Shown here in pieces: positions 14,086 to 20,801 of a DNA stretch of 64,000 nt. Every line of letters begins with the position of its first letter. The stretch's first letter is position 1. The translations under genes were made by a program, and so were the position numbers. A model generated the notes under the pieces. That model ran no database searches, had not been told where the DNA came from, and saw nothing but the letters and a program-made list of their open reading frames with translations. Source of the stretch: Candidatus Marinacidobacterales bacterium (lineage in GTDB: Bacteria > Acidobacteriota > Vicinamibacteria > Marinacidobacterales > DATDRI01); the NCBI GenBank assembly GCA_965226495.1, contig OZ245365.1, positions 5,529,783 through 5,593,782 on the forward strand, given 5' to 3'.

Positions 14086-14149
14086 ACATTATAATAGGAA
14101 CCGCCCGATTTCGCGCCCGATTGCCGCTTGAAATCCCAACTATCCGAAG

Positions 14150-14228
14150 TGCTAAAAATTTAGCAAATAAACTTGACGGGACCGCGGTCTCAGTGCTAGA
14201 TTTCCAGCATGATGCTGAAATATTAGCA
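14150..14228. promoter_or_regulatory. Three TGCT-N8-AGCA dyad sites (14150-14165, 14194-14209, 14213-14228) upstream of the blaI-like gene; putative repressor operators overlapping a TTGACG(14173)...TAGATT promoter
   Basis: TGCTAAAaaTTTAGCA is a perfect palindrome. TGCTagatttccAGCA and TGCTgaaatattAGCA share the same half-sites. They lie in the tadA/blaI divergent intergenic region; GAGGAGG RBS at 14241. Confidence 0.5.
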
Positions 14229-14256
14229 TGGCAGGAAGTCGAGGAGGCGAAACCAC

Positions 14257-16935: not shown

Positions 16936-17004
16936 CGACCGCGCGGCATAGCGTCCTCTGAGACACCGGCCAGCCGCCATGCCGGAAGTCGGGGCCGATG
17001 AAGC

Positions 17005-18408
17005 ATGAAGACGGCGCTTTTTTTCCTCCTCTCGTCGACGCTCGTTGCTGCCGCTGAGCAACCGCGAGTCAGCGCCTACGAGCTCGACGTCTCTTTTTTC
17101 CCGGACACGAGGTCGATGGAAGGCCTCGCTCTGATTCGCTTCGAGCCTACCGATAGCGCTCCGCCCACACTCACGTTCTACCTCCACGGCGAGCTCTCGG
17201 TAGACGCGGTTCATCTCGGCGAGGACTCGCTCGAAATAGAGCAGGACCAGGTGTTCTACGACTTCGACTACTCCCTGGTCGCAACCAGAGTCCGACTCGA
17301 GCTCGAAGGAAAGAACCTGGACCAGGGCCTCTCGATAACCTATTCGGGATTTTTCAACCCGTCGCAAGCTCGGTCACGCACCGACTACATGCGCATCGAC
17401 TCGGACGGTGTCTTTCTACGAGCCTATGGATACTCCCTCTGGTTCCCGACCTTCTTGGAAGCGCAACGAGACTCTTACCCGGTCTCCTTTTCCAAGGTCA
17501 TGCTCCGAACGCCGCCCGATTTCGAATCCGTTTTCGTGGGCCGCAAGCTCACAGAGCGCCAAGAGGACGGCCAACGAGTGACCGAATGGATCGCGGAGGG
17601 GATCAACTTGATCGACGCCCAATGTACGGCTCAGCGGTACTCCGTCACCGCTCACGGCGGCTACTTTCTTTATCATCATGATGACCAAGTGTCGCGGGCC
17701 GCGACAGAGCGCATCCTGCTTTTCGCGAAACAGCTGAACGGCTTCTACCAGAACGTATATAAGAAGGATGCGGATGCTCCCCAGTTCCATATTATGGATA
17801 TGCCCCGCTATGGCGACATCTCGAGCGGCAACGTAGTCGGGATCAACCGCGAGTTGTGGGTCGAGCTCGATGAAACCTCTTACCCCGCGCGAGTCCTCGC
17901 TCACGAGCTGGTTCATCCCTTGGTGCATGTTGATACGAATCGTGCCGACCCCTTGGCGGCTTTGGCGGTCGAAGGATTCCCTGCGTACTTCCACCTTCCG
18001 ATCATGGCGGAGTTTTTGGGCGAGGACTACTACCGGACGCACCTAAAGCGGACCGAGACGCGCTATCTAGAGAAAAAATCCTCGGGAACCGATCGTCGCG
18101 GACATCCGTTGCCCCAAGAGAAACCGCTTCTCGATATCGAGGAGGACGAGATCGGTGCCTACAAAGATCCCTTTCTTCTATCGGACCGGGCGCTCTTGTT
18201 CTTCGATTACCTCCGAAGACAAATGGGCCACGATTTGTTCTTCGCCTTCATCCGGACCCTTTTTAACCGCGAAAAGCTAGACTTGGCGACCTTCGAAGCC
18301 ACCGTACTCGATTACCTGCCCGGGACAAAAGGAGAACTCGATCTGTGGCTCAGGACGACCGATTACCCCGAACAGCTTCGACTAGATCACGGGGAAAGGA
18401 CCAGATGA
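17005..18408 (+). CDS. Secreted zinc metallopeptidase, gluzincin (HExxH-X18-E; M1-like)
   Basis: Signal peptide MKTALFFLLSSTLVAAA. HELVHPLVHVDTNRADPLAALAVEGFPAY gives HExxH plus Glu 18 residues after the second His. Stop overlaps the next gene start (ATGA). Confidence 0.65.
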   Translation: MKTALFFLLSSTLVAAAEQPRVSAYELDVSFFPDTRSMEGLALIRFEPTDSAPPTLTFYLHGELSVDAVHLGEDSLEIEQDQVFYDFDYSLVATRVRLELEGKNLDQGLSITYSGFFNPSQARSRTDYMRIDSDGVFLRAYGYSLWFPTFLEAQRDSYPVSFSKVMLRTPPDFESVFVGRKLTERQEDGQRVTEWIAEGINLIDAQCTAQRYSVTAHGGYFLYHHDDQVSRAATERILLFAKQLNGFYQNVYKKDADAPQFHIMDMPRYGDISSGNVVGINRELWVELDETSYPARVLAHELVHPLVHVDTNRADPLAALAVEGFPAYFHLPIMAEFLGEDYYRTHLKRTETRYLEKKSSGTDRRGHPLPQEKPLLDIEEDEIGAYKDPFLLSDRALLFFDYLRRQMGHDLFFAFIRTLFNREKLDLATFEATVLDYLPGTKGELDLWLRTTDYPEQLRLDHGERTR

Positions 18409-20801
18409 TGCAGACGTTCTTCCAAGACATTCGGTTCGGCTGTCGATCGCTGTGGAAACAACCCACCTTCACTGCCGTTGCGGTGATCACCATCGCCTTG
18501 GGCATTGGTGGCAACACGGCCATGTTCAGCGTGGTGAACGCGGTACTCCTCAAACCTTTCTCCTTCCAGGATCCGGAACAACTCGTTCGTGTCGAGAGCC
18601 GCAACTCCTATCCCGATGTGGCCGACTGGATCCAACAGTCTCGGACGGGAGAGAACTTCGGTGGATACGCGACGTTTTTTCTCGACCTGACCCAAGGGGA
18701 CGAGCCGGAGCGCATACCGGGTTCGGCGGTCACCGGAAGCCTCTTTCCGCTACTGGGCGTCAACCCCGCCCTAGGCCGAACACTCGAGCCCGATGACGAC
18801 GTTCCCGGCGGGGCACGTGTCATCCTTCTGAGCGACGGCTTCTGGAAAAGGCATCTGGGTAGCGATCCCGAGATCGTCGGCAAGCCTCTTTCCTTTAATG
18901 GAGATCAATACACGGTGGTGGGGGTCATGCCGATGGGGTTCCAGCTGCCTCTCAATCGTTCCGAGACTTGGGTACCGACTCGGGTGGTGATGCGGGAAGC
19001 CTCCGCGGCACGCGGGGCACACATGTTTCAAGCGGTGGGCCGTCTCAAGACAGACGTGAGCCTCGAACAGGCGCAGGCCGATATGGACAATATCGCAGCT
19101 CGTCTCGAGGAGCTCTACCCTGAGGAGAACCTCGACCGCCGTTTCATTCTCGCTCCGCTACAGGAGTACGTTGCTCGTGGAGCGAGACCCACGCTGGTGA
19201 TCCTTCTCGGCGCGGTCGGTTTTGTCTTGCTCATCGCTTGCGCGAATGTCGCCAACTTGCTGCTGGCGCGAGGGGCGGCGAGACAGCGTGAGATCGCCTT
19301 GCGCGCTGCGCTGGGCGCCGGACGCGCGCGGCTTTTCCGCCAGCTACTGACAGAGAGCGTACTTCTCTCGCTCGCCGGCGGAGCGCTCGCCGCGCCCTTA
19401 GCGTTCGCCATCGTGCGCGTCGTCGTGGCGCTCGGCTCGGAGAGCATCCCTAGACTCGACGAGATCGCACTAGACGGACACGTCTTGGGCTTCGCACTCG
19501 GGCTCTCCGTCCTCACCGGGATCGTGTTCGGACTCATTCCCGCCGCCCACGCCACAGTACCGCGCCTCTTCGATGCACTCAGGGAGGGTGGTCGAGCCTC
19601 GGGTAGCGTTTTGCCCCGCAGATTCCGCAGCGGACTCGTCGTTTCCGAGATGGCGTTGGCAGTCGTGTTGTTGATCGGGGCCGGCCTCTTGCTACGGAGT
19701 TTCTATCAACTACAGAACGTCGAGCCCGGGTTCGACCACGAAAAACTCTTAACGATGGAATTTTCTCTTCCCGCCAGCACCTATCGTGAGATACCCAAAA
19801 GAATTCTCTTCTATCAACGGCTACTCGAAGAGCTCGGCACCCTTCCTGGTGTCGAATCTGCGGCGGCGACCACCGAACTGCCGTTGGGAAGCAACTTCGT
19901 CCCTCACAACTTTGTGGTCGAGGGTAAACCCATGGATCCAGGAACCGAGCCCGAGATCTATTATCGCGGCATCAGCCCGGGCTACTTGGATACGATGGGC
20001 ATTCCGCTCCTTAAGGGTCGCCGCTTCACCGATCAAGACCGAGAGGGGGCCCCGAGCGTCGGCATCATTAATGAGGCCCTCGCTCGACAACTCTTCCCTG
20101 ATGAGGATCCCATCGGGCAAAGGTTCCGATGGGCGCGGCGGTCGGTCCTCTACTGGATCACCATCGTGGGTGTGGCAGGTGACGTGAGGCCCTTCGGGTT
20201 GGATGTCGCCGAGCAAGCGGCCGTCTACATACCATTCACGCAGGAGCGGGATTGGTGGCGAACGTGGATGCACGTTGTGCTCAGAACGACTACCGAGCCC
20301 ATGAGCTTGGCGCCGGCGATCAAGAGTCGCGTCGCGGAACTCGCCAAGACCATCCCGGTCGCCAACATCCGAGGCATGGAAGATCTCATGGCCGACTCGC
20401 TCGCCCCGCGCCGGGCACGATTTTGGTTGCTCGGAGGTTTCGCCGCGATCGCTATGCTCCTGGCCGCGGTTGGAATCTATGGCGTCCTCTCGTTCATGGT
20501 CGTGCAACGCACCAGCGAAATCGGCGTCCGCATGGCCCTGGGGGCGCGCCGGGCCGACGTCTTGAGAATGGTCATTGGCGAAGGAATGCTCTTGGCGATC
20601 GTCGGGATCGCCCTGGGAGTATTGGGAGCACTAGCTTTGACTGGAGTCATGTCGAGCCTTCTTTATGAAGTAAACGCCGCCGACCCGCTGACCTTCGTCA
20701 TCATCGCCGCCCTACTGACCGGTGTGGCTCTCGCCGCGAGCTTCGTGCCCGCCTTCCGGGCCACCCGAGTCGATCCCCTCACCGCACTCCATTACGAGTA
20801 A
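18405..20801 (+). CDS. ADOP-family duplicated ABC permease (MacB-like periplasmic domain plus two FtsX modules)
   Basis: Starts MMQTFFQDIRFGCRSLWKQPTFTAVAVITIALGIGGNTAMFSVVNAVLL, the characteristic ADOP N-terminus. Two 4-TM FtsX-like blocks. The 4-bp overlap with the peptidase gene implies translational coupling. Confidence 0.85.
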   Translation: MMQTFFQDIRFGCRSLWKQPTFTAVAVITIALGIGGNTAMFSVVNAVLLKPFSFQDPEQLVRVESRNSYPDVADWIQQSRTGENFGGYATFFLDLTQGDEPERIPGSAVTGSLFPLLGVNPALGRTLEPDDDVPGGARVILLSDGFWKRHLGSDPEIVGKPLSFNGDQYTVVGVMPMGFQLPLNRSETWVPTRVVMREASAARGAHMFQAVGRLKTDVSLEQAQADMDNIAARLEELYPEENLDRRFILAPLQEYVARGARPTLVILLGAVGFVLLIACANVANLLLARGAARQREIALRAALGAGRARLFRQLLTESVLLSLAGGALAAPLAFAIVRVVVALGSESIPRLDEIALDGHVLGFALGLSVLTGIVFGLIPAAHATVPRLFDALREGGRASGSVLPRRFRSGLVVSEMALAVVLLIGAGLLLRSFYQLQNVEPGFDHEKLLTMEFSLPASTYREIPKRILFYQRLLEELGTLPGVESAAATTELPLGSNFVPHNFVVEGKPMDPGTEPEIYYRGISPGYLDTMGIPLLKGRRFTDQDREGAPSVGIINEALARQLFPDEDPIGQRFRWARRSVLYWITIVGVAGDVRPFGLDVAEQAAVYIPFTQERDWWRTWMHVVLRTTTEPMSLAPAIKSRVAELAKTIPVANIRGMEDLMADSLAPRRARFWLLGGFAAIAMLLAAVGIYGVLSFMVVQRTSEIGVRMALGARRADVLRMVIGEGMLLAIVGIALGVLGALALTGVMSSLLYEVNAADPLTFVIIAALLTGVALAASFVPAFRATRVDPLTALHYE

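Follow-up and report, generated by a model that had tools for sequence, protein, structure and literature searches.

A BlaI-M56 regulatory locus of an acidobacterium with a HEAT-repeat solenoid in place of the beta-lactam sensor and an ADOP permease downstream

Gene pairs encoding a winged-helix repressor of the BlaI family and a membrane-bound M56 metalloprotease (BlaIR systems) are a textbook antibiotic-resistance switch, and it is such a pair that switches on penicillin resistance in staphylococci. Here we describe a divergent BlaIR locus from Candidatus Marinacidobacterales bacterium (Acidobacteriota; Vicinamibacteria; assembly GCA_965226495.1), which lies in a 64,000-nucleotide stretch of contig OZ245365.1 (positions 5,529,783 to 5,593,782 of the forward strand; hereafter the window, in which positions are counted from its first letter). 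Between 14257 and 20801 the plus strand is filled by four open reading frames (ORFs) that encode, in order, a BlaI-family repressor, an M56 protease fused to a HEAT-repeat array, a secreted protein with an HExxH-X18-E motif and an ADOP permease. An earlier interpretation of the nucleotide sequence (the sequence-only reading) had proposed these genes as an uncharacterised sense-and-respond module; its domain calls were borne out by profile searches, for the third gene by motif and predicted fold only, and the 2-nt spacing between the first two genes and the 4-bp overlap (ATGA) between the last two were both verified. The argument rests on what was directly observed here: which domains are present, how far motifs and operators are conserved, and the synteny statistics. 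We judge it moderately probable that the locus is a proteolytic derepression switch of the BlaIR family in which the HEAT solenoid serves as an extracytoplasmic sensor of a cue that is not a beta-lactam.

The first gene (14257..14664, plus strand) begins with GTG and encodes a 135-residue protein of the BlaI/MecI/CopY family of winged-helix repressors, residues 15-128 of which match the full Penicillinase_R profile (PF03965; E 1.3e-26, profile positions 1-114 of 115). The protein falls far under the equivalog cut-offs of both the CopY and the true BlaI models: it lies outside CopY (TIGR02698) with 44.6 bits against a cut-off of 121.95, and as it carries no cysteine it is without the C-terminal Cys motif of CopY. 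A blaI homologue stands directly upstream of the M56 gene in 80 of the 82 related loci that form our comparison set, the exceptions being a contig end and a frameshifted region of a metagenome-assembled genome (MAG). More broadly, 96% of M56 proteins lie near a BlaI gene (PMC13492132).

The second gene (14667-16775, plus strand) encodes a 702-residue fusion protein in three parts. Its protease half (residues 1-364, 14667..15758) belongs to the M56 family by a Peptidase_M56 match on residues 14-323 (PF05569; E 5.5e-35) and contains four predicted transmembrane (TM) helices, the HEMAH motif (15348-15362) and an ERACD motif at residues 269-273. The catalytic signature (HEXXH + EXXXD), comprising H228, E229 and H232 of the sequence HEMAHVKRRD together with E269 and D273, lies between TM3 and TM4 and is invariant in 33 relatives. 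This half aligns with the Staphylococcus aureus BlaR1 structures 8exs and 8exp (E 3e-5); in a fold search with the full model HEAT matches dominated and nothing was gained on the M56 half, so that the relationship to BlaR1 rests on sequence. There follow a disordered linker (residues 365-436, 15759..15974) with a poly-acidic run, DVDDDGDDDDE, and a predicted local distance difference test (pLDDT) score below 50, and a HEAT/PBS-type alpha-solenoid (residues 441-702, 15987..16772) that is predicted to be periplasmic. Profile matches on residues ~440-700 are strong (HEAT_2, E 1.2e-64; HEAT_PBS, E 5.2e-49 in 7 stretches). The poly-acidic linker and the repeats had been foreseen in the sequence-only reading, which put the repeats at about nine; the ORF in fact holds 8 complete repeats of 31 residues. 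Its provisos that the HEAT block might belong to a separate gene, or the HExxH to a context other than M56, can be laid aside, since HEAT array and M56 core share one ORF and HEMAH lies within the M56 domain.

The solenoid follows the last TM helix, where a penicillin-binding domain had been supposed to have been replaced, and this supposition holds. Profile searches of gene 2 revealed no transpeptidase or penicillin-binding (PF00905-type) domain, the protein lies outside the BlaR1/MecR1 sensor families (NF000326, NF033108/9), and the blaR1_generic model covers it only at model positions 103-328 of 585, that is, over the protease half, with 110 bits against a cut-off of 400. A canonical system responding to beta-lactams, as BlaR1/MecR1 does, or to copper, as CopY does, would explain the weak, sub-threshold matches to the blaR1_generic, BlaI and CopY models; against it stand those same low scores, the absence of a transpeptidase domain and of any cysteine in the repressor, and a search of the vicinity that found no beta-lactamase or penicillin-binding protein (PBP) gene. 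Canonical beta-lactam or copper sensing was ruled out on domain content and the absent cysteine, and we give it next to no credence.

Hydropathy alone, applied to the question of whether the HEAT array is cytoplasmic or periplasmic, predicts the four TM helices at residues 10-28, 38-56, 127-145 and 338-356 and places the array in the periplasm. The loop that holds the protease (residues 146-337) contains 30 lysines and arginines, while the C-terminal 347 residues have a net charge of about -50 and the solenoid is without cysteine. In BlaR1 the protease loop is inside and the C-terminal domain outside, and by analogy gene 2 probably has a BlaR1-like arrangement with the HEAT array outside the cytoplasm. 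An AlphaFold model gives the M56 core a pLDDT above 90 and the solenoid, with its paired helices, about 98; the best Protein Data Bank (PDB) matches of the solenoid are the alphaRep HEAT binders at ~40% identity, which also head a fold search, and the modelled array would thus fit a protein-binding scaffold. The array might instead be cytoplasmic, a scaffold to which BlaI or some other cytosolic partner would be recruited. Repeats of the HEAT/PBS-lyase kind typically occur in cytoplasmic proteins, NblB and CpcE/F are the top NCBIfam matches, and the domain is very acidic and has no cysteine; yet an even number of TM helices with a K/R-rich loop inside, as in BlaR1, leaves the C-terminal domain outside, and most of the stand-alone HEAT paralogues encoded at related loci, described below, are exported or anchored. 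We therefore regard a cytoplasmic array as unlikely.

Fusion of M56 to HEAT recurs widely. A protein search with gene 2 returned 325 relatives, with PF05569 and HEAT together in all but one of the 120 matches listed; their source labels are 'M56 family metallopeptidase' or 'HEAT repeat protein/beta-lactamase regulating signal transducer' only. A scan of species-representative genomes yielded 80 loci, 44 of which, together with the loci designated L001 and L002, have HEAT after M56 by tblastn (46 counting the window). They come from Acidobacteriota (Vicinamibacteria, Blastocatellia and Thermoanaerobaculia), Gemmatimonadota and Rhodothermales. A literature search on M56 with HEAT, on ADOP and on acidobacterial BlaIR systems found no paper that describes or tests the M56-HEAT architecture. 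A 2026 study of CenIR in Clostridioides difficile counted ~15,000 M56 proteins in 254 InterPro architectures, only ~6% of them with a beta-lactam-binding domain, and listed nine architectures with at least 100 entries, among which HEAT does not appear (PMC13492132). Because ~94% of M56 proteins are without a beta-lactam domain, sensor replacement is the rule and not the exception (PMC13492132). The suggestion that the system is undescribed thus stands for M56-HEAT itself, which is a recurrent and undescribed replacement of the sensor, but not for the loss of the beta-lactam sensor as something unusual.

The genes that follow M56-HEAT are also recurrent. Clustering of the ORFs downstream of the 46 M56-HEAT loci gave three recurrent families: stand-alone HEAT proteins (31 loci), ADOP permeases (13 loci) and a CNNM/CBS/CorC pair (7 loci). 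The stand-alone HEAT proteins contain only HEAT domains, and 20 of 24 have a signal peptide or a membrane anchor at the N-terminus; because these partners are exported or anchored, they support a periplasmic site of action for the HEAT arrays. The conserved core across relatives is blaI, M56-HEAT and one or more exported stand-alone HEAT proteins. Seven acidobacterial loci have tandem genes for CNNM/CBS/CorC_HlyC (CorC-type) membrane proteins: these follow ADOP in L003 (14984-17583), L015, L022, L028, L037 and L047, and in L030 such a pair follows the HEAT genes instead; the window is without one.

Three TGCT-N8-AGCA dyads had been noticed upstream of blaI, and all were found, at 14150, 14194 and 14213; the further claim that one is a perfect palindrome did not survive, since pairing by eye gives 7/8, 6/8 and 6/8. 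The first (14150..14165, TGCTAAAAATTTAGCA, 7/8 pairs) lies just upstream of the -35-like hexamer of a sigma-70-like promoter on the plus strand (14173..14202, TTGACG-18-TAGATT, a consensus match only). The second (14194..14209, TGCTAGATTTCCAGCA, 6/8) overlaps the -10 element, which lies within it, and the third (14213..14228, TGCTGAAATATTAGCA, 6/8) starts 19 nt after the second, just downstream of the -10. All three sites fall within 80 nt, where the full 64 kb would be expected to hold 0.62, and the 5 sites found window-wide were reached by none of 100 shuffles. In a census of all 4-mer dyads with 2-12 nt spacers in the 230 nt upstream of blaI at 76 loci, TGCT-N8-AGCA was by far the commonest, occurring at 56 of 76 loci from several phyla; GCTA-N6-TAGC occurred in 43 of the 76 upstream regions and the next unrelated dyad in 21. 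The related loci, 1.13 Mb in all, contain 117 TGCT-N8-AGCA sites, 92 of which lie no more than 260 nt from a blaI start, and the sites across this sequence have an A/T-rich spacer with A or G at position 5. Paired sites are most commonly 19 nt apart (19 cases), a spacing shared by dyads 2 and 3 here, and all three window operators are kept at the same positions in L001. The motif accompanies HEAT and non-HEAT M56 partners in several phyla, and therefore belongs to this BlaI clade. The dyads are thus real and phylogenetically conserved as a candidate operator, TGCTA-N6-TAGCA, and their overlap with the promoter-like site at blaI is a layout typical of autorepression.

A second set of sites bears on the genes downstream. 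Among the 25 sites not upstream of blaI, 14 have A/T-rich spacers and lie just past the stop codon of an M56 or M56-HEAT gene and before the next gene, while the remainder have G/C-rich spacers and are as numerous as expected by chance. Eleven of the 14 loci are M56-HEAT loci, in which exported HEAT genes, with or without ADOP, come next (L003 10350, L015 9887, L022 8324, L024 10508, L028 10436, L030 10359, L037 10178, L047 10175, L039 6354, L009 8416 and L016 9959/9978). At seven of these (L003, L015, L022, L024, L028, L037 and L047) the second operator is followed by the exported-HEAT gene or genes and then by ADOP, and at L039 it lies in the divergent intergenic region between the ADOP and HEAT genes. 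Nothing else indicates as strongly as this candidate second operator that BlaI controls the downstream genes as its outputs. The other three loci have M56 without HEAT (L032 6204, L056 6795 and L081 4433); at L032 the gene after the site encodes a DUF5916/CBM9 protein.

The fourth gene of the window (18405..20801, plus strand; 798 aa), whose start overlaps the stop of gene 3, encodes a duplicated MacB/FtsX-type permease of the ADOP family (TIGR03434; 978.5 bits against a cut-off of 622.3, residues 6-798 on positions 2-803 of 803). MacB_PCD and FtsX each match it in two stretches, 8 TM helices are predicted, and both MacB_PCD domains fall on the periplasmic side. Neither an LSGGQ/E signature nor a GxxGxGKST Walker A motif of an ABC ATPase partner was found in any frame of the whole 64-kb window, and gene 4 therefore fits the 'orphan' definition of ADOP. 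An ADOP gene lies within ~1.1 kb downstream on the same strand at 12 of 18 acidobacterial M56-HEAT loci, at 1 of 16 in Gemmatimonadota and at none of 28 M56 loci without HEAT; in a query-anchored neighbour-joining tree these linked ADOPs cluster together, and unlinked copies from the same loci fall outside. The linkage of ADOP to M56-HEAT is well beyond chance, and ADOP is probably a conserved output in Acidobacteriota.

The third gene (17005..18408, plus strand; 467 aa) is of a different standing. Its N-terminus, MKTALFFLLSSTLVAAA/EQ, resembles a Sec signal peptide by eye and is disordered in the model, and its HELVH-X18-E zinc site (HELVH, 17902-17916; E323, 17971-17973), with H300, E301, H304 and E323 invariant in 39 relatives, is that of an M1 enzyme; the downstream Y386 is also invariant. 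Within the gene cluster this exported M1-like gluzincin is itself a lineage-specific insert. Searches against Pfam, NCBIfam (E up to 0.01) and PDB sequences gave no match, Pfam Peptidase_M1 included, and only structure prediction (pLDDT 90.3) and Foldseek revealed the relationship (E 2.5e-19 to 1e-16, TMq 0.65-0.71, against 3cia, LTA4H, IRAP, ERAP1 and 6a8z). The predicted fold is the two-domain M1 fold, with a beta-sandwich domain at the N-terminus followed by a thermolysin-like catalytic domain. The GXMEN exopeptidase motif, which stands ~22 residues before HEXXH, is absent from gene 3; because ISSGN takes its place, with Asn kept, the Glu that binds the substrate N-terminus is missing. Gene 3 would thus have the M1 fold and zinc site while falling outside M1 at the sequence level, and may not be an aminopeptidase. 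Its family, for which Pfam has no model, comprises more than 200 clusters of ~470 aa; they occur in Acidobacteriota, WOR-3 and further phyla and are in every case labelled 'hypothetical'.

The synteny bears on whether genes 3 and 4 belong to the switch at all. By tblastn the gene 3 family occurs in just one of the 82 related loci (L001) and is absent from the other 81; a copy between a HEAT tail and ADOP was seen nowhere but in the window, in L001 and in L087, a metagenomic contig, and five relatives that lie on long contigs each stand alone in an unrelated setting. A conserved membership of gene 3 in the module was accordingly rejected. The usual gene at this position in relatives encodes an exported HEAT-repeat protein, and in the narrow clade of the window the secreted M1-like metallopeptidase takes its place. 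The L001 orthologue (9317-10333) has an in-frame deletion of approximately residues 83-205, in the N-terminal beta domain, which leaves 338 aa and suggests relaxed selection on gene 3. One could hold on these grounds that only blaI and M56-HEAT are functional and that peptidase and permease are unrelated neighbours, particularly as L002 retains the upstream synteny with neither gene 3 nor ADOP, no operator separates genes 2 and 3, and ADOP is a large paralogous family in Acidobacteria. This is hard to square with same-strand ADOP genes at two-thirds of the acidobacterial loci when the 64-kb window holds one ADOP only, with the single tree cluster of the linked ADOPs, with the second operator before the HEAT/ADOP unit in relatives, or with the ATGA overlap of genes 3 and 4 and an ancestral gap of only ~69 nt between genes 2 and 3. 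We find it doubtful, if still worth keeping in view. Of the four-gene module first proposed, then, blaI with M56-HEAT and the ADOP linkage remain, and the gluzincin drops out as a conserved member; likewise, the synteny comparison that had been suggested finds M56-HEAT together with blaI and, in Acidobacteriota, ADOP, but gene 3 only in the close clade of the window. What emerges is a real, recurrent core module, to which ADOP belongs as a genuine partner in a restricted lineage and the gluzincin as a local addition.

The 3' end of gene 2 has decayed (16773..16935, plus strand). Past the TAA at 16773-16775 a ninth HEAT repeat runs on in frame, SDVRAEVVGALGMLQDRRALDTLTQAIKDEDP, until a 1-nt insertion (an extra G) near 16871; a tenth repeat then continues in the +1 frame, DVRAQALWAISMLARGSDDE, to the ancestral TGA at 16933-16935. 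In L001 (77% identical) GAC stands in place of TAA, the extra base is absent and the gene encodes 758 aa, so that the window gene encodes 8 complete repeats of an ancestral 10. Another assembly of the species supplies a protein of the same 90% cluster (P0256, 761 aa) with a different frameshift a few codons earlier; P0256 was considered as an intact allele and rejected, since its tail proved to arise by frameshifted reading through this same decay. Assembly noise could account for some of the lesions, while the TAA/GAC change, being a two-base difference, is not a typical indel error. A reading in which this genome retains the module only as a decaying remnant that has ceased to signal is fed by the premature TAA and the frameshift that cost the last two repeats, by the earlier frameshift of the other assembly, by the 123 residues lost in frame from gene 3 of L001 and by an IS30-like insertion that disrupts a gene lying 3 kb downstream. 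It must reckon with an intact M56 domain, linker and eight repeats, with catalytic residues that are all present, with full-length blaI, gene 3 and ADOP genes and with three operators kept in L001; moreover, loss of terminal repeats need not abolish the function of a solenoid. On balance we think a remnant improbable.

Upstream of the module, on the minus strand, lie a tadA-like deaminase gene (13567-14085), a tRNA-Ser(CGA) gene (13407-13502) and a SNF2/DUF3670 helicase gene with that of a SWIM protein, a context shared by L001 and L002; the tRNA gene is directly downstream of the deaminase gene, from which the blaI promoter region diverges, and it was the sole RNA element in an Rfam scan of 13000-22500. 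Downstream, again on the minus strand, an ArsR-AHSA1 regulator gene is followed by a gene (22790-26621) for a CarboxypepD_reg and outer-membrane beta-barrel protein resembling TonB-dependent receptors, which is interrupted by an IS30-like transposase gene (23591-24544, minus strand) identified by eye from the sequence.

From these elements a working model can be put together. A BlaI-like dimer would bind the TGCTA-N6-TAGCA operators that flank and overlap the promoter, as their conservation suggests, and so repress its own operon. The M56 protein would span the inner membrane, exposing its zinc-protease loop to the cytoplasm, as BlaR1 does, and its acidic HEAT array to the periplasm, an orientation to which predicted topology and exported paralogues both point. 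Binding of a ligand, probably a protein or peptide, by the array would activate the protease, and BlaI would be cleaved, by analogy with BlaR1; derepression would then yield more sensor and more of the downstream products. The output would consist of exported HEAT binders in most lineages, with ADOP added in Acidobacteriota, and of an exported M1-like peptidase with ADOP in the clade of the window. The sensor domain of BlaR1 is homologous to the beta-lactam-binding effectors under its control, and by this analogy the pairing of a HEAT sensor with exported HEAT proteins points to one ligand bound by the two. We speculate that the signal might be stress caused by a peptide or protein in the periplasm, such as an antimicrobial peptide, with which a binder or peptidase alongside a MacB-like permease would fit. 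Alternatively, and as a long shot, the solenoid and the co-regulated exported HEAT proteins could form a protein-recognition sensor of ADOP itself or of its periplasmic peptide or protein substrate. This would be sensing of flux or occupancy comparable to that of BceAB-BceS, but relayed by regulated proteolysis of BlaI, and on this reading the exchange of the binder for a secreted M1-like peptidase in the clade of the window suggests a peptide signal, open to sequestration, degradation or expulsion. If this were true, an ADOP-monitoring sensor would be the first regulatory or functional handle on the ATPase-less ADOP family.

Several points weigh against the switch proposed here. DNA binding by BlaI, the membrane topology, proteolysis of BlaI and co-transcription of the genes are all inferred. 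S. aureus BlaI is cleaved at Asn-Phe, and no such site is evident in the gene 1 repressor when it is compared by eye with the S. aureus sequence. HEAT/PBS repeats are mostly known from cytoplasmic proteins. ADOP is not obligate, being absent downstream at 6 of 18 acidobacterial and 15 of 16 Gemmatimonadota M56-HEAT loci; the ADOP tree is a simple neighbour-joining tree, and the gene maps of the relatives were drawn up by crude ORF calling and by tblastn against MAG contigs. No internal operator, exact or with up to two mismatches, was found in the window between genes 2 and 3 or before ADOP, and L001 likewise has none; for this reason read-through from the blaI promoter is the likeliest route to expression of genes 3 and 4, and no terminator-like site was found in the gap between genes 2 and 3. 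That gap measures 229 nt, although, because the decayed repeats 9 and 10 lie there, most of it is dead coding sequence. Finally, with a premature stop in M56-HEAT of the window and an in-frame deletion in gene 3 of L001, the module may be eroding in this clade.

The derepression switch with a HEAT sensor, which we continue to prefer, would have consequences beyond the present locus. Together with 45 or more relatives, the locus forms a coherent subfamily, distinguished by a folded repeat domain as predicted periplasmic sensor, exported paralogues of that domain and, in Acidobacteria, a link to ADOP. Within a dominant soil phylum ADOP makes up a very large paralogous family, and its link to BlaIR yields testable hypotheses for both the M56-HEAT and the ADOP families. 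The TGCTA-N6-TAGCA candidate operator is usable straight away for regulon prediction and could help to identify what other atypical BlaIR systems control; of the ~94% of M56 proteins that are without a beta-lactam sensor, almost none has an assigned signal (PMC13492132). Gene 3, for its part, reveals a widespread family of predicted M1-fold metallopeptidases with no Pfam model and no aminopeptidase motif.

Compared with the BlaI/BlaR1 and MecI/MecR1 systems of S. aureus and Bacillus licheniformis, the locus has the same winged-helix repressor gene beside a gene for a four-TM M56 protease with HEXXH and EXXXD motifs, the same placement of dyads over the promoter and the same predicted logic of signal-activated repressor cleavage. 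However, its protease ends in a HEAT solenoid where theirs has a penicillin-binding (class D beta-lactamase-like) domain, its blaI comes before the gene for the protease, its probable output is a permease where theirs is a beta-lactamase or PBP2a, and the operator half-site is TGCTA, whereas that of staphylococci is TACA/TGTA. Closer in kind are CenIR of C. difficile (PMC13492132), PvmSR of Pseudomonas aeruginosa (bioRxiv 10.64898/2026.08.03.742534) and BlaIR of Mycobacterium tuberculosis and M. abscessus, in which a BlaI and M56 pair without a beta-lactam sensor controls a regulon unrelated to beta-lactams; the C-termini of these proteins are short, unstructured or absent, whereas M56-HEAT has a large folded repeat domain and exported paralogues. 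M56-TonB_C and other M56 fusions likewise use the M56 core as a signalling chassis with a swapped periplasmic domain (PMC13492132). The solenoid shares with alphaRep and PBS-lyase HEAT proteins a regular 31-residue repeat, ~40% identical to the designed consensus, and differs in being fused to a membrane protease through an acidic disordered linker and in its predicted location outside the cytoplasm. Gene 3 resembles the M1 zinc aminopeptidases (LTA4 hydrolase, 3cia and Deinococcus 6a8z) in predicted fold, HEXXH-X18-E site and invariant downstream Tyr, yet it is only 11-15% identical to them, has no C-terminal ARM/HEAT domain and carries a signal-peptide-like N-terminus. Gene 4 is a full-length ADOP of the usual kind (TIGR03434), each half of which has the MacB-type layout of four TM helices and a periplasmic domain, as in MacB, FtsX and BceB permeases. 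ADOP genes usually stand next to PadR-type regulators (TIGR03433), according to the TIGRFAMs notes; here and in 12 related loci, by contrast, the neighbouring regulator is BlaI with M56-HEAT.

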